Shown one piece after another: positions 5,753-57,487 of a DNA stretch of 64,000 nucleotides (the first letter of the stretch is position 1; each line of letters begins with the position of its first letter). The position numbers and the translations under genes are program-made. The stretch comes from Alphaproteobacteria bacterium (lineage in GTDB: Bacteria > Pseudomonadota > Alphaproteobacteria > Rs-D84). The stretch is from positions 4,769 through 68,768 of the forward strand of contig JAFSOV010000007.1 in NCBI GenBank assembly GCA_017443235.1, written 5' to 3'. The notes under the pieces were generated by a model. That model was not told the origin of the DNA, did not search any database, and worked only from the letters and a program-made list of their open reading frames with translations.

Positions 5753-6118
5753 TTATTTCAATTCCACTTTTGCACCGGCTGCTTCGATGGTGGCCTTCAT
5801 TTTTTCGGCTTCATCTTTTGCAACGGCTTCTTTCACGGCCTTTGGTGCGGATTCAACCAACGCTTTGGCTTCACCCAATCCCAAACCTGTGATATCTTTG
5901 ACTGCCTTGATAACCGCCAATTTGTTTGCGCCAACATCGGTCAACACAACATCAAATTCGGTCTTTTCTTCGGCCGCAGCCGCCGCAGGACCCGCCGCAA
6001 CGGCAACCGCCGCAGCCGCGCTAACGCCCCATGTTTCTTCCAACGCCTTGGACAATTCGACTGCCTCCAAGACGGTCAATTTTGACAATTCTTCAACTAA
6101 TTTTTGAATGTCTGCCAT
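5753..6118 (-). CDS. rplL: 50S ribosomal protein L7/L12
   Basis: 121 aa with an Ala-rich hinge ([24 protein letters not shown]) and the C-terminal domain [12 protein letters not shown]. It is downstream of rplJ. Confidence 0.97.
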
Positions 6119-21531: not shown

Positions 21532-22071
21532 ATGATTGTTGAAATAGAAGAATTTTCTTTTCGAAATATTATTCCACAATTTCGTGAGTTTAATTCTGCG
21601 GTGCGTGAAAATCGTGCGCGATTGACGCCGTACTTTTGGTGGGCGGATATAAATTCCATATCCAGATTCAATTTTATACTGTCCGGCGTGTTGACCGAAA
21701 AATTGACCCGCGTTATGCGTGATTTGCCGTATAACAAGAAATTTATAATCCGCGCAGACGGTGAATTTGCCGGCACAATTGGACTGGACGATGCGGCACA
21801 AAACGCATACCGCGCGGAACTCTGGATTTTTGTGACCGCGAAACATGCCGGGGCGCATGTTGCATCCCATTCGATAAAATTGATTGAAGAATACGCGTCA
21901 AAAAAATCTATTCAAAATATCTATGCGCGTACAGACGAACAGAATTGGAATTCGCGGAATATGTTGGCGGCCAATAATTATGAATTGAAACAAACAAAAT
22001 CAAACTTTTGGCGAAATGTGATTGAATTGCGTTGGAATAAAACGATTAAAACAAAAACTGTTGAAAAATAA
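21532..22071 (+). CDS. GNAT-family N-acetyltransferase (RimJ/RimL-like)
   Basis: 179 aa with a pattern typical of RimL-type GNATs: FIIRADGEFAGTIGLD, ELWIFVTAKHAGAHVAS and ARTDEQNWNSRNMLAANNYEL. Confidence 0.7.
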   Translation: MIVEIEEFSFRNIIPQFREFNSAVRENRARLTPYFWWADINSISRFNFILSGVLTEKLTRVMRDLPYNKKFIIRADGEFAGTIGLDDAAQNAYRAELWIFVTAKHAGAHVASHSIKLIEEYASKKSIQNIYARTDEQNWNSRNMLAANNYELKQTKSNFWRNVIELRWNKTIKTKTVEK

Positions 22072-22194
22072 AATTAGGTTGTTAAAATAACCGCGTATAT
22101 TGGTCCCATCGTTCTGGCCGAAACACCCACGCGATGCATCGCGCGGGACCCGGACGCCGGAATGACAACGACGACGGGGCCACGCTTCGCTAGG

Positions 22195-22269
22195 GGTCCC
22201 ATCGTCTAGCGGTCAGGACATCGGATTCTCATTCCGGTAACATGGGTTCGATTCCCATTGGGACTGCCA
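22195..22269 (+). tRNA. tRNA-Glu (anticodon CUC), CCA encoded
   Basis: GGTCCCATCGTCTAGCGGTCAGGACATCGGATTCTCATTCCGGTAACATGGGTTCGATTCCCATTGGGACTGCCA folds by hand into a cloverleaf. It has a Glu-type 3-bp D stem (GTC/GAC), anticodon loop TTCTCAT and T-loop TTCGATT. Confidence 0.88.
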
Positions 22270-22298
22270 TCCGCTTTCGCTTACGCTACAGCGAGATT
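22264..22298 (+). repeat. 35-bp direct repeat, left copy (overlaps the last 6 nt of tRNA-Glu)
   Basis: CTGCCATCCGCTTTCGCTTACGCTACAGCGAGATT is identical to 25531-25565. Confidence 0.9.
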
Positions 22299-22393
22299 GG
22301 TTTTGCAAAAAACAAGCGAAGGTGGAGTGTTAGAGAAACGGATGTCTCGCTGTAATGAACGTAGTGAATGAAAGCGGACCGAATGGATTGAAA

Positions 22394-22633
22394 ATGTATT
22401 ATACTTATATCTTGCAAAGTATAAATTTTCCTAAACATTTTTATGTTGGATATACCCAGGATTTAGAACAGCGTTTAAAACAACACAATCTTGGTAATTC
22501 CATTCATACCAACAAATTTCGGCCTTGGAAATTACGAGGCTGTATTGCATTTGATACCGAAGACAAGGCAAAAAAGTTTGAACAATTTCTAAAAACCGGT
22601 AATGGCAGACTTTTTCAGAAAAAATTTTTCTAG
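22394..22633 (+). CDS. GIY-YIG nuclease-superfamily protein (YhbQ/UPF0213-like, ~80 aa)
   Basis: ORF 22355..22633 with a likely start at MYYTYILQS. The GIY (YTYIL) and YIG-type (FYVGYTQDLEQRLKQHN) blocks are present, followed by PWKL...E...A...E..LK. Confidence 0.82.
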   Translation: MYYTYILQSINFPKHFYVGYTQDLEQRLKQHNLGNSIHTNKFRPWKLRGCIAFDTEDKAKKFEQFLKTGNGRLFQKKFF

Positions 22634-22780
22634 TTATTTATCATTTGAATTTAACCGCTGCAAAAAGGCAGACGGAAGTATGCCGGTCACCCGAAGTTTT
22701 AACGAAGGGTGATTTTGCAAGGTGGCGAAGCATTCCCATTATGTCAATTTTCGAACTCTTTAAGAAAAACGATTGGTTTT

Positions 22781-25411
22781 TTACATTTTATGTTGGTCAT
22801 CTGGTTTGGTGCTGTTTTCTATATCCTGCACCGCACTCATCGCACCAACCACTTTTGTTCCATCTTGCAATGATTGCCACTTCTTTCGTTTTCGACCAGC
22901 CCAAGCTTTATCTATTAGTGCCTGTTTTTTACTTTTATGCACACATCTAGACACCATGGAACCATTTTTCATTTCAAGTATAAAACCTTCGAAATCCGGA
23001 TCGTGTCGAAGTTCGTCCAACAGTTTATTGGTAGTTGATGCATCATTACGTGGGAAATCTTTATCTTTTGCTAAATCATTAGCCGATAACCATTCATCTG
23101 TTTTAGGTGGATAATACTTAAATCCCGCTCTTTCGGCAAGTAATTGTTTTTTACTAACATGTATGCATTTGGTCACCTTACTTCTGGTTTTCATATTAAG
23201 TATAAATCCTTCAAAGTCAGGATCATGTTCAAATTTGTCCAATGCATCATAGATATATCTGATATGACCGCTTGGAAAATCTTTGTCTTTTATCAAATCA
23301 CTAGCCGATAGCCATTCATCTGTTTTAGGTGGGTATGTTCTAAATCCAGCTCTTTTCGCAAACAACAGTTTTTTACTAACATGCAAACACTTGGTAACTA
23401 AGCCACTACATTTCATATCAAGTATAAAACCTTCAAAGTCTGGATCGTATTCAAATTTGTCCAATGCATCATTGATATTTTCACGATTACTGTTGGGAAA
23501 ATCTTTATCTTTTGCCAAATCGTTAGCTGACAGCCATTCATCTGTCTTTAATGGATATGCTATAAATCCCGCTCTTTTTGCAAACAACAATTTTTTACTT
23601 TTGTGTATGCATTTGGTCACAAAGCCACCACTTTTCATATCGCGTATAAATCCTTCAAAGTCCGGATCATGTTGAAGTTCATCCAACGCTTTATTGATAA
23701 TAGGTGGCGTATTACGTGGGAAATCTTTATCTTTTGCTAAATCGTTAGCTGACAGCCATTCATCTGTCTTTAATGGATATGCTATAAATCCCGCTCTTTT
23801 TGCAAACAACAATTTTTTACTTTTGTGTATGCATTTGGTCACAAAGCCACCACTTTTCATATCGCGTATAAATCCCTCAAAGTCAGGATCGTGTTCAAAT
23901 TTATTCAATGCGTTATTGATTATTATCCAATCACTACGTGGGAAATCTTTATCTTTCGACAAATCTTTAACCGACAACCATTCATCTGTTTTTTCGGGAA
24001 TAAATTCGTCTGCTATGCGTTCTTCGGTTCGACGATTCAATTCGATTAGGGTTGCACTATCCGTAATCAAGTCGAAATCCACAAATTCGACATTGCCATG
24101 AGTGCGTGCACCTATGTTAGTTTTATCACGTTGAAAATCCTTGGGGTACAAAACGATATTACCTTCGGCGATATCTTTGAATAATACTTGATGCGAATTT
24201 GATGCCGTGTATAAAATTTCTTCAGGTGCTTCATTTTTTGTAGCACGAAATATAGTATCCAAAACAAATGCAATTTTATCGGGGTTATCTTCATCCAATC
24301 GTATTGCTCGACCGGCGGTCTGTTCCGCTTTGACCCGCGAACGTGTCGGATAATTTATACACAAAGCAACCGTTACATCATCAAACCCCTCGGTTAATGT
24401 CCCCACCTGACATGCGACAGTGTACCTGTTGCCATATTGGAATTCATCTTTTAAACTATTATATTCTTTATCGCCAATTCCTACTTTATGTAAAGATATT
24501 GCGACATCTTGTCCCATAACTTCATTTATTTTGGCTGCCTGTAAATTTGCAATTGCTGCATTTGGACAATTTATTATTGTTTTTAATGTCCTGAACTGTA
24601 TCCCTGTTTCTTTATCAAACCCATCCGCATAAATACGTGCGATTTCCGTTGCCAAAGTTTCTGGGCTGATTTTTGTTGTTATTTTTTCATAATCATAATC
24701 GCCGGTACTTGTTGCAGCCACCGAAGACAAATCGCATACAATACTTGAACGATAAAGGATGTTTTTCACTGGGCTTAGAACACCTCTATCTACAGCTTCT
24801 GGGATATTCATGGAGTATATTTCAGTGTTCAGCATATTCGCAACCGCACGATTTACTTCATATTTAGGTGTAGCGGTAAAACCTATAATTGGCACAAACT
24901 GGTTATAGAAAGTTAATTGTTCGGAAATTTTCGCCCCCAACATATGATGTGCCTCGTCCGCAAAAATCAGGGCAACATCATTAAAATCTACAACCCCAAA
25001 TAATTTTACTAACGAATTATAGGTCGTGATAATAACATCACTATTGATATTCTTTTTCTGTCCGCTGTATTCTGTTGCGGTAATGTTTGCGAATTTTTCT
25101 AGTTTTTTCTGTGTTTGTTCTATCAGTGATAAACGTGGCACAATTATTACAATTTTTTGGTGTTTTTTTGTACCGGTTGCAATAAGCGCATCAAAATAAG
25201 CACGTGCCATACGCGCAAACATAACCGTTTTGCCATAGCCAGTTGGCAATTTAAAATAACTATGTGCTATTTGTTCGTCTGTAAATTTGTCGGACACAAG
25301 TTCACGAAAAACCTCAAGTTTTTGCTTGTCACGCCACGTAGGCCAAGCATCTGCATCGGCTATCTGCCTGGCAAGACCCGTACGTAAAAGTTCCACATCT
25401 GTTGTATCCAT
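22781..25411 (-). CDS. SF2 (ResIII/DEAH-type) helicase with five C-terminal 74-aa tandem repeats
   Basis: 876 aa carrying motif I PTGYGKT, motif II FADEAHH, motif III FTATP and motif VI QTAGRAIR. From aa 474 onward KTDEWLS recurs at 474, 548, 622, 696 and 770. Confidence 0.85.
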   Translation of the reverse strand: MDTTDVELLRTGLARQIADADAWPTWRDKQKLEVFRELVSDKFTDEQIAHSYFKLPTGYGKTVMFARMARAYFDALIATGTKKHQKIVIIVPRLSLIEQTQKKLEKFANITATEYSGQKKNINSDVIITTYNSLVKLFGVVDFNDVALIFADEAHHMLGAKISEQLTFYNQFVPIIGFTATPKYEVNRAVANMLNTEIYSMNIPEAVDRGVLSPVKNILYRSSIVCDLSSVAATSTGDYDYEKITTKISPETLATEIARIYADGFDKETGIQFRTLKTIINCPNAAIANLQAAKINEVMGQDVAISLHKVGIGDKEYNSLKDEFQYGNRYTVACQVGTLTEGFDDVTVALCINYPTRSRVKAEQTAGRAIRLDEDNPDKIAFVLDTIFRATKNEAPEEILYTASNSHQVLFKDIAEGNIVLYPKDFQRDKTNIGARTHGNVEFVDFDLITDSATLIELNRRTEERIADEFIPEKTDEWLSVKDLSKDKDFPRSDWIIINNALNKFEHDPDFEGFIRDMKSGGFVTKCIHKSKKLLFAKRAGFIAYPLKTDEWLSANDLAKDKDFPRNTPPIINKALDELQHDPDFEGFIRDMKSGGFVTKCIHKSKKLLFAKRAGFIAYPLKTDEWLSANDLAKDKDFPNSNRENINDALDKFEYDPDFEGFILDMKCSGLVTKCLHVSKKLLFAKRAGFRTYPPKTDEWLSASDLIKDKDFPSGHIRYIYDALDKFEHDPDFEGFILNMKTRSKVTKCIHVSKKQLLAERAGFKYYPPKTDEWLSANDLAKDKDFPRNDASTTNKLLDELRHDPDFEGFILEMKNGSMVSRCVHKSKKQALIDKAWAGRKRKKWQSLQDGTKVVGAMSAVQDIENSTKPDDQHKM
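22904..23992 (-). repeat. Five in-frame 222-bp tandem repeats inside the helicase gene
   Basis: The period is exactly 222 bp. 23521-23656 and 23743-23878 are identical by eye, and the other copies are diverged. Confidence 0.9.
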
Positions 25412-25530
25412 ATTTAGACCTATCTTACGAATTGCATTGTACCATAAAAATCTAATAAAAACACCTTAATTTTCTTTCCGAACCGCAACAAATCTTTGAT
25501 TTCATCGGTTCGTGAATTGCACAGTATGTC

Positions 25531-25565
25531 CTGCCATCCGCTTTCGCTTACGCTACAGCGAGATT
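25531..25565 (+). repeat. 35-bp direct repeat, right copy
   Basis: CTGCCATCCGCTTTCGCTTACGCTACAGCGAGATT is identical to 22264-22298. Confidence 0.9.
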
Positions 25566-25596
25566 AAGCAGCGCGACCAGTAAATAATTCTGATTT

Positions 25597-25998
25597 TTAT
25601 TGCAGCAACTCTCTCGCTTGATTCAACAGACCAATTGCCAAATCTATTTTTGTTGTATCAAATGGTGATGCGGTCGGTGCGGATTCGGTTTCGTAAATGT
25701 CGGGGCGTGGCGTGCTGTGCGGAATTTCACGCGTTGGCATTTCCATATCAATCGCAGAAAAATCACCATTATGAATCAATTTTTTTACACCGGCGATTGT
25801 CATTCCGCGATTATACAACAAATCTTGGATAGTTTTCAGGCGCGCGATTGTTTCCGGACGATAATAACGTCGCCCGCCGGCGCCGGCGATTGGGCGCACA
25901 ACGGTTGGAAATTGCTTTTCCCAATACCGCAGTGTGTGCGCCGGCAAGCCCATTTCACGCGATACTTCGTTTATTGATGCAAAGTATTCTTTATCCAT
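25597..25998 (-). CDS. MerR-family transcriptional regulator
   Basis: 133 aa with a MerR-type HTH ([22 protein letters not shown]...[21 protein letters not shown]). Its start overlaps the gyrA stop by 8 nt. Confidence 0.85.
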
Positions 25999-28729
25999 TT
26001 GTCACCTGATCCAATGTTTCTTCTTCCGCGTCCGCACCGTCCGATTCAATAGAAATTGCAGACATAACCTTTTCATTTTCCGCCGTACGGAACAGTGTCA
26101 CACCCGCAGTTGAACGGCCCGCAATGCGAATGTCCGATGCCGGTGTGCGAATAATTTTTCCACCATTCGTCACCATAATAACATCGTTATCTGCGTTCAC
26201 CGGGAAAGAACCCGCAACCGCGGTATTTTTACCGCCCAATTTAATGTTGGTAAATCCGCCACCACCACGATGCGTTAAACGATATTCATACGAAGATGTC
26301 CGTTTACCAAATCCGTTTTCAGAAATGGTCAGTATGAATTCTTCTTTCTTCGCCATTTCCGCCATTTTCGCATCGTCCAGAACCAGTGTTGTTGTTTCTT
26401 CTTCGGCATCACCCTCTTCTTCTATACCGGTTGCGGCGCGACGCGCGGCGCGTGACTGTTTCACATATGCCGCACGAACCGACGAGTCAGATTCACCACG
26501 ATTCAACATGGACATTCCAATAATACGGTCGTCTTTGGATAACGTGATTCCGCGCACGCCGGTCGAATTGCGTCCGGCAAAGATACGAATTTCCGGCACA
26601 GGGAATCGTATTGCGCGCCCGCGATATGTTGCCAAGAATACGTCTTGGTTTTCGTTGCACGGCAATACAGAAACCAAACTGTCGCCTTCGTCCAGTTTCA
26701 TTGCAATTTTTCCGTTGGCACGAATTGAATCAAAATCAGACATACGATTACGGCGTACCGTACCCGACGCGGTTACAAACATCAAGAAATGTTCCGTACC
26801 AGAATTTTTGATTGCTGCAACATCTTCTTCGGGAACCGGTAAAATGGCCGTGATTGTTTCGCCCGCCTCTAACGGCAACAGGTTCACCAATGGCCGTCCC
26901 TTGGCCGCGGCCGCCGCCTCGGGCAACTTGTACGTTTTTAATTTATAGCACAAACCACGCGACGAGAAGAAAAGCAACGGCGTATGTGTGTTTGCAACAA
27001 AAACCTGGACCACATAGTCGTCGTCTTTGGTTGTCATTGCATTGCGACCCTTGCCACCGCGTTTTTGCGCGCGATATGTATCCAGTGACACGCGTTTGAT
27101 ATAACCCGTATTTGACACAGTCACGACCATGTCTTCGCGCGCAATCAAATCTTCGATATCAATATCGATTTCCGCATCAGAAATTTCTGTACGACGTGGC
27201 GATGCCCAATTATCACGCACCGCGGTCGTTTCATCACGAATAATTTGAATAATGCGCTCGTGCGATGCCAAAATATCCAACAGGTCGCGAATCTGCGCAC
27301 CCAATTCCACCAAATCCGCGTGTAGTTTATCGCGTTCCAACCCGGTCAATCGATGCAATTGCAATTCCAAAATCGCACGTGCCTGGTCTTCGGACATATA
27401 GAACATTCCGTCTTTGTATTCCGTGTTCGGATCATCAATCAATTTAATATAGTTTTCAATATCAGATGCACGCCAACCACGCGCAATCAACGCGGCGCGG
27501 GCTTCCTCGGGGTTTGCGGATGATTTAATCAGTTCGATAACTTCATCCAAATTACCAACCGCAACAGACAATCCCAACAAAGTGTGCGCACGATTTCGCG
27601 CCTTGTTCAAATCAAAAATTGTTCTGCGGCGAATAACCTCTTCACGGAATTCGATAAACGCATCCAGCACCCCACGCACGTTGAACAGCATTGGCCGCCC
27701 GCGGTTCAACGCCATCATATTTACCGGGAAATTCGTCTGCATTTCCGTGTATTGGAACAGATGATTCAACACAACGTCCGCAATCGCATCGCGCTTTAAT
27801 TCGATAACAATGCGCAGACCTTCCTTGGACGATTCATCACGAATTTCACTGATGCCTTCGATTTTTTTATCTTTGGCAAGTTCGGCGATTTTGATAATCA
27901 TCTGGGCCTTGTTCACCTGGTACGGGATTTCATCGACAATAATCGCCTCGTGATCATGGAATTTTTCGATATGGGTTTTTGCACGAACAATAATCGAACC
28001 ACGACCGGTGGTGTGCGCCTTGTATGCGCCGGCACGACCCATAATGACCGCACCCGTCGGGAAATCCGGTCCCGGAATAATTTGGAACAATTCATCATCG
28101 CTCAGTTCACGATTATCCAACACCGCCAAAATACCATTGCAAATTTCACCAAGGTTATATGTTGGCACATTTGTCGCCATACCAACCGCAATACCCGAAC
28201 CGCCGTTCACCAAGAAATTTGGAAACTTGGTCGGCAACACAACCGGTTCTTGCAGTGTTCCGTCAAAGTTCGGTTGCCAATCAACGGTATCTTTGTCCAT
28301 ATCTTCCATAAGCGATGCGCCCAGTTTGGACAGGCGTGCCTCGGTATAACGCATAGCCGCGGCCTTGTCCCCGTCGCGCGAACCAAAGTTACCCTGGCCT
28401 TGGACCAACATTTCGCCCATAGAAAAATCTTGGCCCATACGAACCATTGCTTCGTAAATAGAACTGTCGCCGTGGGGGTGATATTTACCCATAACATCAC
28501 CGACAATACGCGCAGATTTAACCGTTGGCTTGGTCGCCGGCGCGACATCGTTCATAACGTATAAAATACGGCGATGCACCGGTTTGCAACCGTCGCGCAC
28601 ATCAGGCAACGCACGGTCCACAATAACAGACATCGCATAGTCCAAAAACGATGTCCGCATTTCATGTTCCAACGAAGATTGTGGGACTTTGATTGTATTT
28701 ATTTCGTTTGTGTTTTCGATTTCTGACAT
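25991..28729 (-). CDS. gyrA: DNA gyrase subunit A
   Basis: ORF 25991..28771 contains [12 protein letters not shown], the active-site region [10 protein letters not shown] and a C-terminal beta-pinwheel repeat region. I trimmed the start to MSEIENT by codon arithmetic. My reading of the printed sequence near 28680 disagreed with the ORF track by 1 nt in a T-run, and I followed the track. Confidence 0.95.
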
Positions 28730-28885
28730 AACTTCACTTTCCCTTGGTTTATAGCATATAAACGATAGCAAATTTTTGCGCGCACGGTCAAGAAATAAAG
28801 CAATTTTTATGTATTAAATTTCATATTGACAAAAGGTTTTATTTGTAATACGATTAAACCAAGAAAAACAAAAAGGGATAGAAAA

Positions 28886-48795: not shown

Positions 48796-48874
48796 TCCGT
48801 CCCGGCATCCGCTTACGCTTGCGCTACAGCGAGATATGCCGCGGCCGCGACGGGTGTTAGCGGTTAGTGGATAG
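48784..48874. repeat. Composite repeat: two direct TTAGTGG-unit arms flanking a GC-rich hairpin that contains the CGCTACAGCGAGAT motif
   Basis: The arms are gttagtggttagt (48784-48796) and gtgttagcggttagtggatag (48854-48874). Between them, ccgtcccggcat...atgccgcggccgcgacgg encloses ggcatccgcttacgcttgcgctacagcgagat, which has 3 mismatches to the 35-bp direct-repeat core. Confidence 0.8.
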
Positions 48875-50692: not shown

Positions 50693-50804
50693 CGAATTTT
50701 CGTTATTGCGCGCATAGCGCACAATTAAGAAAATTCAGTGCCGCGGCGTAGCGAAGCGGAGACGGGCTATATCGCAAAGGCGGACATAAGTGGGAAAAAG
50801 TTCT

Positions 50805-53928: not shown

Positions 53929-54355
53929 TTTTCGTCCTTTTGGCTATTCCAAAGAAATCTGGTCCCGATATTTTTATGCCGGTTATATCCATCGCAACTG
54001 CTGACAAAGTTCGGTATCTTTTATCGTTATACGCGAACCCGTCGTCTGTAACGACAACATTGTGTTTAATGCCACGAAATGTCTTGGTTATGGTGCTACC
54101 GATGGTTAGGTTGTATTTATTTTTATGCACCTTATCCAAACAAGCATTGGGGTTATCCTTATATTTGCGAATTTTTACCATATATTTTGGTTCTATTCGC
54201 AGTTTTAATCGGTCGCATTGAATGTAATACCACAGGGCAAAATTCTGGCGTTTGAACGGGTATTGCGAATACTTTGCCCACAATCGCCCACGTTCTGCAA
54301 ATGACAGGCGTTTTAACTCTGCCAAACTCTGCGGTAAATCAGTTTCATACGACAT
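53915..54355 (-). CDS. DUF2924-family protein (recombinase-associated)
   Basis: 146 aa. The C-terminal block GSTITKTFRGIKHNVVVTDDGFAYNDKRYRTLSAVAMDITGIKISGPDFFGI matches my recollection of DUF2924. It overlaps the recombinase start by 14 nt, which is the typical pairing. Confidence 0.7.
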   Translation of the reverse strand: MSYETDLPQSLAELKRLSFAERGRLWAKYSQYPFKRQNFALWYYIQCDRLKLRIEPKYMVKIRKYKDNPNACLDKVHKNKYNLTIGSTITKTFRGIKHNVVVTDDGFAYNDKRYRTLSAVAMDITGIKISGPDFFGIAKRTKNADK

Positions 54356-54476
54356 ATAAACTCCTTTTAACGTCGTCCAATTACCGCTCTAAAGAAGCCG
54401 AAAGTCAAGTTATTTTAAGAAAATTTCTTGAATAAATTGTATATTTATGTAGTATGTACGTCACAAGAGGTAACAA

Positions 54477-55565
54477 ATGGCATCGTTTGAAGATATACAA
54501 AATAAATTAAATGAATTACGTAGTATTATAGGAGAGATAGAACAAGTTTGGCCTACAGATCAATTAGATCAAAAAGAAAAAGTCAACGTTCTTATGCGAT
54601 TTGCAACAGATAGATTACAAAGCGAATATGTACAATTGTTGCATGTAAATGAAATTAATAATATATTTAATGCAATAAACGCTATTATTGCGGATCTTAC
54701 TAATTACAAAAATACAAAACATCCAAATTATATTCGTAATGCCGTAGCTCAAATTAATAATTTAAGAGTACAACTGAACGCGATTCCAACAAGTAGCATA
54801 AACCAAATTTCGTTAAGAAAGTTAATTGCTGAATGTTCTAAAATGAAAGATGTAAACGCGAAAACAATAGACCAATTAAGACAACAGCAAGACGATTTAA
54901 AAAGTAGAGGTGATCGGATATTAAATCAGGCAATAAATTTATTATCAAATGTTACTACTGGGGTTTTATCGAAGGAATTTGAACTAAAACGTCAAACGGA
55001 AATAGGAGGTTTGCCACAGAATTTTAAACCACTTAAATGGCTAGGCGTAAAAAAATTGGGTGTTTATCAAAAAAACACTATTGGGCTATGGTTATTATTA
55101 TTAATTATGTGTTGCATAGTTATATTTGGGGGATATCTAATTGATTATATTGTTGTTTTGGACAAACCACAAACATCATTATGGATTTATGCTTTGATAA
55201 AATTTATAGTAAGATTATCCATATTGGGACCACTAATTTGGTTAGCTATTGTGCAAAACAAAAAGATGAATTTATCAAAAAAATTAGCTGAGGAATACTG
55301 GCATAAGGAAATTATAACAAAAACATTTGTTGGATTGTCTGATCAGATTGATAAAACAACAGAAGGAGAAACGTCAAAAAAATTAAGACTAAAATTATTA
55401 GAATTGACATTAGATACAATTGCGAAAGATCCTGCAGACTGTATAGGAAACCACAATGATGCAGACAACCCCATGCATAATATTATGAAAATATCAAATA
55501 AGGGCTTGGGTAAAGTGAATGATATATTAGATATAACTAAAAAGACAAAAGAAGTTTTAGAATAA
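54477..55565 (+). CDS. Hypothetical membrane protein: N-terminal helical/coiled-coil region, 2-3 TM helices, C-terminal helical domain (362 aa)
   Basis: The TM segments are IGLWLLLLIMCCIVIFGGYLIDYIVVL and LWIYALIKFIVRLSILGPLIWLAIV. It is the first gene of a co-directional, tightly spaced four-gene block. Confidence 0.6.
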   Translation: MASFEDIQNKLNELRSIIGEIEQVWPTDQLDQKEKVNVLMRFATDRLQSEYVQLLHVNEINNIFNAINAIIADLTNYKNTKHPNYIRNAVAQINNLRVQLNAIPTSSINQISLRKLIAECSKMKDVNAKTIDQLRQQQDDLKSRGDRILNQAINLLSNVTTGVLSKEFELKRQTEIGGLPQNFKPLKWLGVKKLGVYQKNTIGLWLLLLIMCCIVIFGGYLIDYIVVLDKPQTSLWIYALIKFIVRLSILGPLIWLAIVQNKKMNLSKKLAEEYWHKEIITKTFVGLSDQIDKTTEGETSKKLRLKLLELTLDTIAKDPADCIGNHNDADNPMHNIMKISNKGLGKVNDILDITKKTKEVLE

Positions 55566-55581
55566 ATTAATTAGGCTAATA

Positions 55582-55863
55582 ATGATAAAATCGTTTAATT
55601 GTCGTGAGACAGAAAAGATTTTCAACGGCAAGTGTTCTAAGGACTTTCCTGCAGATATTCAGTCTAGAGCATTTAAGAAATTAAGCATGATTAATGCGTC
55701 TGAAAAGGTGGAAGATTTACGTCTTCCGCCATCAAATCATCTTGAAAAGTTGTCAGGAGATCGTAAGGGGCAATGGAGTATTCGTATAAACGGTAAGTAT
55801 AGAATATGTTTTACTTGGACCGAGAAAGAAGCAAATAATGTGGAGATAGTAGAATATCATTAA
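55582..55863 (+). CDS. higB: HigB-type toxin (RelE/ParE superfamily, plasmid maintenance system killer)
   Basis: 93 aa containing IKSF....TEKIF.G......P.......A.KKL..I and LRLPPSNHLEKLSGDRKGQWSIRINGKYRICFTW, which is the classic HigB pattern. Confidence 0.85.
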   Translation: MIKSFNCRETEKIFNGKCSKDFPADIQSRAFKKLSMINASEKVEDLRLPPSNHLEKLSGDRKGQWSIRINGKYRICFTWTEKEANNVEIVEYH

Positions 55864-55870
55864 ATAATAC

Positions 55871-55899
55871 TTGACTTTTCTTATTATCTATTACATAAT
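55871..55899 (+). promoter_or_regulatory. Sigma70-like promoter candidate in front of higA
   Basis: ttgact (55871-55876), a 17-nt spacer, then cataat (55894-55899). Confidence 0.35.
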
Positions 55900-55923
55900 A
55901 CATAATAAAAGAATAGGTAAGCT

Positions 55924-56265
55924 ATGTCTAACTATATTGATATTGAACATGTTGGTACTATTTTAAAAGAAGAATTCATGGAACCTTTGGGGTTGTCCAT
56001 GAATGCTTTGGCGCGTGCAATAGACGTTCCTGCTAATTATATTCATGGAATAGTTCACGGTACGCGGGGTATATCTGCAATGTTAGATTTACGTTTAACT
56101 CATTATTTTGGATTGTCTCAAGGATATTTTCTGCGTATTCAGACACATTATGATATGGTGTTGGCTTCTCGTAATATAACAAGTAAAGAATTAGCGAAAA
56201 TTATACCTTTTAGACCATTAGACAGTCGTCCTGCTAACGATGATTTTAAACGGATAGCGATGTAA
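55924..56265 (+). CDS. higA: HigA-type antitoxin (XRE-family HTH)
   Basis: 113 aa containing ILKEEFMEPLGLSMNALARAIDVPANYIHGIVHGTRGISAMLDLRLTHYFGLSQGYFLRIQTHYD. It follows higB in the toxin-first order typical of HigBA. Confidence 0.85.
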   Translation: MSNYIDIEHVGTILKEEFMEPLGLSMNALARAIDVPANYIHGIVHGTRGISAMLDLRLTHYFGLSQGYFLRIQTHYDMVLASRNITSKELAKIIPFRPLDSRPANDDFKRIAM

Positions 56266-56320
56266 ATATTTCCTTCAAAAGTCTAATTGTATGATAATAT
56301 CCTCCTAAAAGGAGACGTTT

Positions 56321-57487
56321 ATGGATATATCTAATATTTATAATTTGTCAGAAGAACAACTTGTAAAATATCAAAACAATCCATTCCCAGATGATGAAAT
56401 TAGACCGGGTTTGAAGGGTTTTGCTAAAAAATTCAAAGAGGAAATATCCGTTTTGCCGACACCATATGTTATGGCTCTTGAAGGCGGTTATGGAACAGGT
56501 AAAACGTATTTTATTACAAGATTTTGTGAGTATTTGAAAAAAGTAAATTTTGATGGAGATGAATCTATTTTTGCTATTTATTTAAATTTGTGGGAAAGGG
56601 ATTATATAGAAAATCCGTTTCCTGTCATATATTCTCAAATAATATCCGCATTGGAACCTGGTCATGAATTACAAAAATCTATAAGAGATAACGCAGTAAA
56701 AATTACAAAGAATTTGTTAAAATTTGGTGCGAAGGCATTTGGTGGGTTAGATATAAGTGAATTGTTGCCAGATCCAGAACAAGAAAAAGCTGATTTGATA
56801 TCTTTTAAACAATCAATGCAACAAGTAATTGCGGAAAAAGGCACAAAAGTTGTTTTAGTCGTCGATGAGTTGGATAGATGCAAACCTGATTATGCGGTAA
56901 AAGCTCTTGAAACACTAAAACACTTTTTTGATATAGAGGGCTTATTTGTGATATTAACTACAAAACTTGATTTTATGAACAATATATGTGAGGCATATTA
57001 TGGTCATCCCCAGTGCAAGGTTAATATGGGCGAAGGTTATATACAAAAATTTGTTCAATCAACAAAGATTTTAAATCCAACATCTAAAGAGGACTATTGG
57101 TTTATAATAAACAGGATTTTGAATAAGGATACCCTACCGGTCAGAATGCCTAATTATGGACAAGCACTAGAAAGAGACAGCGATGAAAATTTATACGCGA
57201 TTAACGGTTTTCAAAATAATATGGCTGAACTGTTTTGTACAGCTAAATTTTCAATACGTAAAACGATTGATGTTTCCAAAGAATGTTTGAATATTATCAA
57301 AAAGTATAAAGGTAAGATATGGGAACGAATATATGCTGGCTTCCCTGAGTTTATATTGATCAGGTATTTAAAAGCAAAATCTTTGATTCCAGAAAATTTT
57401 CCAGATCCAAAAGTTGGTTGGGACTACAAAACAGACTCTTCAAGAGTAAATAATTTCATCGAGGAAACTTTAAAAACATTACTATAA
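56321..57487 (+). CDS. KAP-family P-loop NTPase (short, no obvious TM insert)
   Basis: 388 aa with Walker A LEGGYGTGKTYF and the Walker B/KAP block VLVVDELDRCKPDYAVKALETLKHFF. Confidence 0.8.
   Translation: MDISNIYNLSEEQLVKYQNNPFPDDEIRPGLKGFAKKFKEEISVLPTPYVMALEGGYGTGKTYFITRFCEYLKKVNFDGDESIFAIYLNLWERDYIENPFPVIYSQIISALEPGHELQKSIRDNAVKITKNLLKFGAKAFGGLDISELLPDPEQEKADLISFKQSMQQVIAEKGTKVVLVVDELDRCKPDYAVKALETLKHFFDIEGLFVILTTKLDFMNNICEAYYGHPQCKVNMGEGYIQKFVQSTKILNPTSKEDYWFIINRILNKDTLPVRMPNYGQALERDSDENLYAINGFQNNMAELFCTAKFSIRKTIDVSKECLNIIKKYKGKIWERIYAGFPEFILIRYLKAKSLIPENFPDPKVGWDYKTDSSRVNNFIEETLKTLL

Follow-up and report, generated by a model that had tools for sequence, protein, structure and literature searches.

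A probable tRNA-Glu-anchored hotspot of variable genes holding two nested single-gene cassettes in an Rs-D84 alphaproteobacterium

The tRNA-Glu locus and its internal junction

We analysed a 64,000-nucleotide (nt) stretch of DNA, hereafter the window, from contig JAFSOV010000007.1 of an Alphaproteobacteria bacterium of the Rs-D84 lineage (assembly GCA_017443235.1, positions 4,769 to 68,768), and within it a 3.3-kb segment that starts at the 3' end of a tRNA-Glu(ctc) gene. This gene (22195 to 22269, plus strand; ARAGORN and Rfam RF00005, 61.5 bits) encodes its CCA, is intact, and appears to be the attachment point, with foreign DNA beginning at 22270. A prior inspection made from the letters alone (the sequence-only reading) had described a pair of perfect 35-bp direct repeats, of which the left overlaps the tRNA 3' end, and two convergent genes between them, and both descriptions were borne out. 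An exact-repeat search found the 35-mer CTGCCATCCGCTTTCGCTTACGCTACAGCGAGATT exactly twice in the 64 kb, at 22264 to 22298 and at 25531 to 25565 (0 matches in 100 dinucleotide-preserving shuffles), and the first six nt of the left copy, CTGCCA, are the last six nt of tRNA-Glu as placed by ARAGORN and Rfam. Pfam and open reading frame (ORF) calls gave a GIY-YIG ORF of 79 amino acids (aa) and an 876-aa superfamily 2 (SF2) helicase as the only genes between the copies.

The segment is best read as a GIY cassette (22270 to 22740, plus strand), a helicase cassette (22741 to 25536, cargo on the minus strand), and a further copy of the motif that opens the GIY cassette (25537 to 25565). The helicase cassette ends in a conserved right arm of ~95 nt, which we call seg (25440 to 25536, plus strand; nhmmer E 1e-24) and which itself terminates in CTGCCA (25531 to 25536). 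The left 35-mer consists of the CTGCCA end of tRNA-Glu and the 29-nt start of the GIY cassette, and the right 35-mer of the CTGCCA end of seg and the second motif copy, which could be either the right-hand repeat of the GIY cassette or the original trailer of tRNA-Glu. The two 35-mers are identical because CTGCCA is common to tRNA-Glu and seg and the motif flanks the GIY cassette on both sides; they appear to be the left end of one cassette and the right end of the other.

The internal junction between the two cassettes is visible by comparison with related loci, which we denote by L numbers. In the syntenic locus L092, the order is tRNA-Glu, motif-leader-GIY-tail, ATTCCCATTGGGACTGCCA, AAA-terminator-left arm, two cargo genes, seg ending in CTGCCA, and, further on, gyrA. 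The GIY tail of the window (22634 to 22740, plus strand) is identical to that of L092 over its last 58 nt, up to ATTCCCATT at 22732 to 22740, the first 9 nt of a duplicated 19-nt tRNA-Glu 3' end, and L092 then continues as ...ATTCCCATTGGGACTGCCA; the tail junction of the window is also seen in L028. On the other side of the junction lies a truncated left arm of the helicase cassette (22741 to 22780, plus strand), starting with ATGTCAATTTTCGAACTCTTTAAGAAAAA; this stretch corresponds to the distal left arm of L092 (compared over 5843 to 5990) and of L049. The latter carries the helicase behind tRNA-Glu(ttc), between two seg copies, and its homology to the window spans exactly 25536 to ~22744, where it stops. 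Relative to L092, the window lacks ~100 nt between two CCATT microhomologies, namely the remainder of the tRNA end, AAA, the terminator, and the larger part of the left arm, and the cassettes meet at 22740/22741 with a 9-nt remnant of the duplicated tRNA-Glu 3' end.

Other relatives, compared over the interval from tRNA-Glu to the MerR and gyrA genes (gyrA 87% to 95% aa identity), show this site in several states. The interval holds tRNA-Glu followed by the motif only in L014 and L034; 135 nt, the motif, and another ORF in L025; a GIY cassette between two motifs plus two other ORFs in L016; and two seg copies in L033. L041 reads tRNA-Glu, AAA-terminator-left arm, ORF291, seg ending in CTGCCA, and motif. 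Both genes of the segment are absent from the same locus in L025, L030, L033, L041, and L014. L044 (571 to 902) holds a gene-less mini-array: behind tRNA-Glu come two 113-nt units in tandem, both with the 20-nt tRNA-Glu 3' end as their terminus, and then the motif.

The sequence-only reading had interpreted the repeats as those of an island integrated at the tRNA, that is, a single 3.3-kb element in tRNA-Glu with the 35-mers as attL and attR and its integrase lost or acting in trans. Perfect direct repeats with the left one over the tRNA 3' end, a GC content below that of the flanks, and the absence of both genes from the same locus in related species would all fit such an element. However, the two genes occur apart in nearly all other genomes, the junction at 22740/22741 carries both a truncated tRNA-Glu 3' end and a truncated left arm, and L092 separates the two modules by a complete pseudo-attachment site. 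Moreover, the seg-CTGCCA/motif junction of the right 35-mer recurs in L041, L030, and L033, which have neither gene, and in L108. We therefore consider a single island improbable. Acquired DNA does lie exactly at the tRNA 3' end and the repeats do mark insertion boundaries, as had been proposed, but the segment appears to be two independent cassettes and not one island with one attachment pair. The empty site that had been suggested as a check exists between species, as a bare tRNA-Glu/motif junction (L014, L034) or as loci without both genes (L025, L030, L033, L041), but not within the species, where all contigs found were occupied.

The AT-richness of the segment, also remarked on before, is real but modest: GC is 0.37 versus 0.44 to 0.48 in the flanking genes, which places the segment merely in the lowest 13% of 2.8-kb intervals of the 64 kb for GC and in the top 16% for tetranucleotide distance, and the compositional argument is therefore weak. 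A scan of the segment for promoters and terminators gave a result no better than shuffles. Rfam, at the gathering threshold over the whole window and at E up to 5 on 22000 to 25800, returned tRNAs only and no RNA family for the leader or seg.

On the right, the segment adjoins a conserved chromosomal flank on the minus strand (25597 to 28771; Pfam, synteny with L016, L025, L030, L033, and L092) that comprises a MerR-family regulator (25597 to 25998) and gyrA (25991 to 28771). Upstream of tRNA-Glu are genes for a GNAT protein, a D-Ala-D-Ala carboxypeptidase, RecR, and KsgA; inspection of these upstream genes revealed no intI integrase beside the attachment site. The most AT-rich stretch of the window lies elsewhere (~54300 to 57400, GC ~0.31, below the studied segment) and has ORFs at 54477 to 55565 and 56321 to 57487, both on the plus strand.

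The GIY cassette family

The GIY cassette comprises a 27-nt motif, a structured leader, the nuclease gene, and a tail that ends in the tRNA-Glu 3' remnant. The motif, TCCGCTTTCGCTTACGCTACAGCGAGA (22270 to 22296, plus strand), is invariant in 18 of 18 distinct cassette leaders aligned. Scanning one genome per species for the motif core, we found 45 copies in 44 loci of species-representative genomes, mostly metagenome-assembled genomes (MAGs) of uncultured gut Alphaproteobacteria, e.g., Ca. Enterousia of the order Rs-D84. CCA precedes 40 of the 45 copies, and 26 directly abut an annotated tRNA gene of one of six kinds: Thr-GGT (16), Glu-CTC (4), Leu-AAG (3), Ser-TGA (1), Ser-CGA (1), and Arg-CCT (1). 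The conserved ~85-nt leader follows in 25 of 45 copies, and an intact 79-aa GIY-YIG ORF in 19.

The possibility raised earlier that the repeats belong to a dispersed family held in part: the 29 nt after CCA do form a family, yet one that is low in copy number (~1 to 3 loci per genome in MAGs, 3 copies in the window) and tied to tRNA ends and GIY-YIG genes. With 40 of 45 copies after CCA and 26 at a tRNA gene, it is not a high-copy dispersed repeat of the REP or MITE kind. The relative of the motif that had been pointed out near 48.8 kb exists, with a revised extent of 48808 to 48834 (plus strand) and 2 mismatches in 27 nt. This solo third copy sits in a GC-rich palindrome (CCGTCCCGGCA...TGCCGCGGCCGCGACGG) downstream of a 234-aa ORF, with no adjoining tRNA; synteny of this copy with the cassette site of L028 near tRNA-Gly/Tyr was considered and rejected, as only the tRNAs match. 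Between tRNA-Gly and tRNA-Tyr, positions 50739 to 50760 of the window weakly resemble the reverse-complemented motif in a gapped alignment (2 substitutions, 5 deletions), probably by chance.

The leader (22270 to 22378, plus strand) lies directly upstream of the GIY-YIG start and includes the motif, which pairs with an imperfect inverted copy of itself at 22345 to 22378. This pairing encloses two small variable hairpins and a conserved loop, which is GTAGAGTTAGAGAAACGGATG in most copies and GGAGTGTTAGAGAAACGGATG in the window. The window leader folds at -40.3 kcal/mol (z -3.1), and in the alignment of 18 distinct leaders 94.6% of cells are paired versus ~40% in slid controls. Compensatory changes occur in helices 3 and 4 only, which are the small internal hairpins; helices 1 and 2 have uncompensated changes on the 3' side, where the inverted partner of the motif varies while the motif is invariant. 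In our reading, the motif is a putative site recognised by its sequence and, in addition, part of a folded structure. We also considered CUGUAAUGA-stem-GAAUGAAA as hammerhead-like but dropped this idea owing to a spacing misfit and the lack of an Rfam match.

The part of the motif at 22275 to 22296 has an alternative fold as well, a local 7-bp hairpin with a T-rich run behind it; this terminator-like arrangement competes with the long-range pairing to 22345 to 22378. Competition between the two folds could act as a switch that controls read-through from the tRNA into the GIY-YIG gene. As no promoter stands out between the tRNA and the gene start, the gene is probably transcribed by read-through from the tRNA promoter.

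The cassette gene (22394 to 22633, plus strand) encodes a predicted minimal GIY-YIG nuclease of the bacterial Slx1-like/UPF0213 type (Pfam PF01541, E 6.5e-15). We consider 22394 (MYYTYILQS...) the most likely start; the alternative ATG at 22355, chosen by the gene callers, would give 92 aa. Matches in structure databases were UPF0213 (PDB: 1zg2, E 4e-5), SLX1 (PDB: 7cq2, E 1.6e-4), and PDB: 1ywl (E 1.6e-3). Copies with 62% to 86% identity are found in 22 other loci, and the helicase is absent there. Three roles are conceivable for the nuclease: it could home selfishly, it could be the enzyme that mobilises the cassettes, or it could be a passenger whose gene is expressed by read-through from the tRNA promoter.

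The right end of the cassette differs from locus to locus. In L016 and L028, a second motif copy closes the cassette. Elsewhere its right end is a copy of the local tRNA 3' end that is 19 nt long in L092 (z 11) and 11 nt long in L005; at the tRNA-Thr loci this copy is decayed and measures ~30 nt. Part of the tail (window 22655 to 22715, ...CACCCGAAGTTTTAACGAAGGGTG...) recurs at 86% to 90% identity away from GIY genes in L003 (2643 to 2703), L018 (6855 to 6915), and L019 (114 to 176), and this tail sequence may be a second small dispersed element.

Some of these features would suit a free-standing homing endonuclease whose cutting of tRNA ends or motif sites that lack the cassette would drive the spread of the cassette, with double-strand-break repair copying it in through the motif and tRNA-end repeats and the helicase cassette as a bystander. 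The catalytic domain (PF01541) is intact, the invariance of the motif fits a recognition site, and the cassette is present or absent at one tRNA-Glu site between species (L016, L024, L092, and the window versus L014 and L034). The cassette of L028, which lies away from tRNA-Glu, brought 19 nt of the tRNA-Glu end with it, as in the co-conversion of flanking markers, and SegB of phage T4 is a GIY-YIG homing enzyme within a tRNA gene cluster (PMC2330249). Yet at 79 aa the protein is a catalytic core with no appended DNA-binding domain, and it groups with the Slx1/UPF0213 structure-specific nucleases, outside the homing-endonuclease/UvrC lineage (PMC1564403). Homing does not by itself make the observed duplications of local tRNA ends, and the cassette at tRNA-Thr sites looks old and vertically inherited over many species. 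We hold homing to be a tentative possibility.

The seg family and the helicase cassette

A metagenome scan found the seg core in 81 loci. Its stem (GAACYG...CRGTTC) shows a compensatory change, CCG/CGG versus CTG/CAG, between aligned copies. The CTGCCA end of seg is usually followed by AAA, a bidirectional terminator, and a conserved left arm of ~85 nt that carries GAGTTCGTAAG...TTTACGAACT and an inner stem with compensatory changes; AAA-terminator-left arm also follows the true tRNA-Glu genes in L041 and L049. A conserved inter-cassette unit of ~240 nt with inverted repeats separates co-oriented one- or two-gene units. Each inter-cassette unit has three or four T-loop-like GTTCGTRA boxes, direct and inverted and present in both arms, which resemble the T-arm of tRNA-Glu, GGTTCGATTCC. 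A sigma-54 promoter reading of TGGCAG...TGCA in seg was rejected for its wrong spacing.

Tandem seg copies, 0.7 to 4 kb apart, occur in L101 (three copies), L074, L089, L122, L124, L138, L049, and L033. The same-strand tRNA to the left of the first seg is tRNA-Glu in all 34 loci that show one (ttc in 22, ctc in 12). At its CTGCCA, the last seg of an array is joined to unrelated sequence of one of three kinds: the motif (the window, L030, L033, L041, and L108), a second conserved flank (13 loci), or a terminator with a convergent tRNA. The 74 seg-adjacent ORFs fall into 46 clusters, many of them without a family match. Annotated cargo includes ABC-F ATPase, GNAT, SAM methyltransferase, PNP_UDP phosphorylase, acyl-ACP thioesterase, HAD hydrolase, peptidase S51, flavodoxin, and DUF3419 proteins. 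Some seg-linked cargo looks defence-like by eye, with HNH-type motifs, a NERD-like protein, and a cytidine-deaminase-like protein (L128, 4594 to 6940; L097, 7599 to 9878). Neither the motif nor seg was present in the viral contigs searched, and a phage or satellite origin is therefore unsupported.

In the window, the cargo of the seg cassette is the SF2 helicase (ResIII/DEAD; Pfam, NCBIfam), encoded at 22781 to 25411 on the minus strand. Its N-terminal core is RadD/XPB/HsdR-like (NCBIfam, Pfam; Foldseek E 2e-11 to RadD), and its C-terminus consists of five tandem 74-aa repeats (KTDEWLS...DPDFEGFI...VTKCIHKSKK) encoded at 22886 to 23995 with a period of 222 nt. Each repeat is predicted to form a strand-helix-helix-hairpin-helix (pLDDT 80 to 90). 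For the repeat, Foldseek ranks only winged-helix regulators at the top, yet none of these matches reaches significance (E at least 0.2, TM ~0.45), and we use winged-helix-like for the modelled fold as a resemblance only. The lengths of the 133 helicase homologues step by ~74 aa (728, 801, 875, 951, 1020, and 1164 aa), and the repeat number therefore varies between strains and species. The most economical reading is that of a putative DNA-tracking ATPase with a variable array of DNA-binding modules. Many metagenome contigs of the species of the window break within the repeats. An apparent disruption of the helicase in L052/L062 proved to be a scaffold gap of 100 N.

The closest homologues (~80% aa and 82% to 84% nt identity; L045 to L051) occur in unrelated contexts beside an ABC-F ATPase, and their surroundings contain neither a tRNA nor the motif nor a GIY gene. 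An ABC-F-type ATPase (two ABC_tran domains and ABC_tran_Xtn) adjoins helicase homologues in two unrelated contexts (L045 to L051, and L049), the two being either adjacent genes near ParB-methylase and terminase-like genes or the cargo of adjacent seg cassettes.

That the GIY-YIG nuclease and the helicase make up a two-gene anti-phage defence system is extremely improbable. Nuclease and SF2 helicase are a common defence pairing, and the helicase core has weak PADLOC matches to PbeA, the R subunit of type I restriction endonucleases, Cas3, and HamB; these matches span the generic ATPase core only (best E 9e-10). The two genes are convergent with a cassette junction between them, each is found without the other in almost every other locus (the GIY gene in 22 loci, the helicase in L045 to L051 and L049), and the recurrent neighbour of the helicase is the ABC-F ATPase. 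There is no functional tie between the two genes.

Assembly of the segment and its likeness to known systems

We read the segment as a hotspot of variable genes anchored at tRNA-Glu that holds two nested single-gene cassettes without a recombinase, and give this reading a probability of about 0.7. The anatomy of the segment is composite and its modules are independent, the junctions after CCA and CTGCCA are sharp, and the seg family is specific to tRNA-Glu, forms tandem arrays, and has diverse cargo. Because the junctions are sharp, the tRNA-Glu linkage is exclusive, and arrays are present, we argue for site-specific insertion at CTGCCA. Insertion would proceed by site-specific recombination or strand transfer directly after CTGCCA, catalysed by an enzyme acting in trans, and the GTTCGTRA boxes of both arms would be putative binding sites of this enzyme.

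The segment could have been assembled in four steps. The starting state would be tRNA-Glu directly followed by the motif, as in L014 (step 1). Arrival of the GIY cassette would yield tRNA-Glu, motif-leader-GIY-tail, a 19-nt tRNA end, and the motif (step 2), and the helicase cassette would then insert at the CTGCCA of this pseudo-tRNA end (step 3). Finally, ~100 nt between the two CCATT repeats would have been deleted (step 4).

Several observations weigh against this reading. No integrase, recombinase, or transposase domain was detected in the two proteins of the segment by Pfam, NCBIfam, and PADLOC, as the sequence-only reading had correctly anticipated for integrases and recombinases; none was found among 18 Pfam-scanned representatives of seg-adjacent cargo, and no ORF of at least 150 aa from any fetched locus (~150 loci) showed the box-II pattern of tyrosine recombinases. 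Look-ups with the MerR and GNAT proteins of the window returned more than 20 contigs of the same species, none with an empty site; all are occupied and 100% identical, and there is therefore no sign of recent mobility or excision. The arrival of the GIY cassette before the helicase cassette (steps 2 and 3) is inferred from the anatomy only. The right boundary of the GIY cassette is heterogeneous, being the motif, the local tRNA end, or neither, and the insertion mode of this cassette is for this reason less clear than that of the seg family. Lastly, cassettes could conceivably be exchanged by homologous recombination through the conserved ~240-nt inter-cassette unit.

A rival reading would dispense with dedicated mobility altogether: the inter-cassette blocks would be reused expression signals (a terminator and a promoter region), and strains would swap cargo by ordinary homologous recombination through the blocks and the tRNA gene. 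The conserved unit does hold a bidirectional terminator and lies upstream of each cargo gene, no recombinase was found in the cargo and box-II scans, and Rs-D84 genomes are small and streamlined (PMC12306168). On the other hand, the CTGCCA junctions are sharp in many contexts (the motif, the second conserved flank in 13 loci, the terminator with a convergent tRNA), the number of cassettes differs between arrays, and the linkage to tRNA-Glu is exclusive (34/34). GTTCGTRA boxes in both orientations and compensated stems look like protein-binding arms, not promoters. We judge such passive exchange to be unlikely.

A more speculative extension, which we also hold to be unlikely, is an integron-like system of Rs-D84 with the CTGCCA end of tRNA-Glu as the attachment site, the ~240-nt unit as the cassette site, and an enzyme other than a tyrosine integrase encoded in cis. 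A candidate would be the Slx1-like GIY-YIG nuclease, whose own cassettes home to tRNA CCA ends, cutting junction hairpins.

Genomes of Rs-D84 and Ca. Enterousia are ~0.75 to 1 Mb in size (PMC12306168), and little is known about how genomes this small gain and shuffle accessory genes. Our data suggest that single-gene cassettes of highly varied cargo dock at one tRNA-Glu end, a situation that parallels the tRNA-anchored islands of streamlined marine cyanobacteria, with much smaller units and no recombinase in cis. The widespread yet functionally obscure bacterial Slx1-like GIY-YIG family gains a concrete genomic habit, a ~470-nt cassette at tRNA CCA ends, and the invariant 27-nt site and structured leader of this cassette suggest direct substrates for biochemistry. 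For annotation, the lesson is that long, perfect direct repeats next to a tRNA do not necessarily bound one single element.

At the level of the nuclease, the protein is similar to UPF0213/Slx1-like GIY-YIG proteins (PDB: 1zg2, 1ywl; PMC1564403), which are stand-alone cores of 80 to 100 aa, and the similarity is significant. Unlike those described, its gene belongs to a ~470-nt unit that opens with the invariant 27-nt motif and the structured leader and sits at the CCA ends of six kinds of tRNA, an association for which we found no precedent in the literature searched; searches for small GIY-YIG genes beside tRNAs (UPF0213, YhbQ, COG2827) returned no relevant account. As with T4 SegB (PMC2330249), the GIY-YIG gene neighbours tRNA genes, is present in some relatives and absent from others, and has taken flanking sequence with it. 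Unlike SegB, the protein has no DNA-binding extension, belongs to a different GIY-YIG lineage, and occurs in a cellular host rather than a phage.

IS200/IS605 elements and their non-autonomous derivatives appear to share subterminal hairpins at both ends and a lack of terminal inverted repeats with the seg cassettes, which have stems in seg and in the left arm. Insertion also appears oriented and directly 3' of a short sequence, always after CTGCCA here, with the end of the element recreating the target. In contrast to this group, neither a Y1 (HUH) transposase nor TnpB was found in the cargo or the window segment, the cargo is arbitrary and accessory, and the target is restricted to tRNA-Glu ends.

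Integrons likewise consist of co-oriented single-gene cassettes with diverse cargo (GNATs, methyltransferases, hydrolases, and ORFs without a family) at one attachment point, and a structured unit resembling a recombination site appears to lie between the cassettes in both systems. The locus differs from integrons in having no intI at the attachment point, which is the 3' end of tRNA-Glu, in an inter-cassette unit that is conserved in sequence, which attC is not, and in a terminator of its own for each cassette.

The closest known concept is that of the tycheposons of Prochlorococcus (bioRxiv 10.1101/2020.12.28.424599) and integrase-less cis-mobilisable elements. Shared with tycheposons are insertion at a specific tRNA 3' end, partial tRNA ends as direct repeats, a streamlined host, accessory cargo, newcomers that push older units outward into tandem arrays, and degenerate remnants. 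Unlike in tycheposons, no tyrosine recombinase was seen in any of the ~150 loci, the units are single genes of ~1 to 3 kb separated by a conserved ~240-nt unit, and the identity with the tRNA is only CTGCCA versus ~40 nt. Because their defining enzymes were sought and not found, we do not file the cassettes as members of the tycheposons, integrons, or IS200/IS605. We rate the segment as a probable variant of the tRNA-anchored flexible island built by successive integrations, in which each cassette appears to belong to a family that seeks tRNA ends without a recombinase of its own and would be a source of variable genes for uncultured gut Alphaproteobacteria with tiny genomes.

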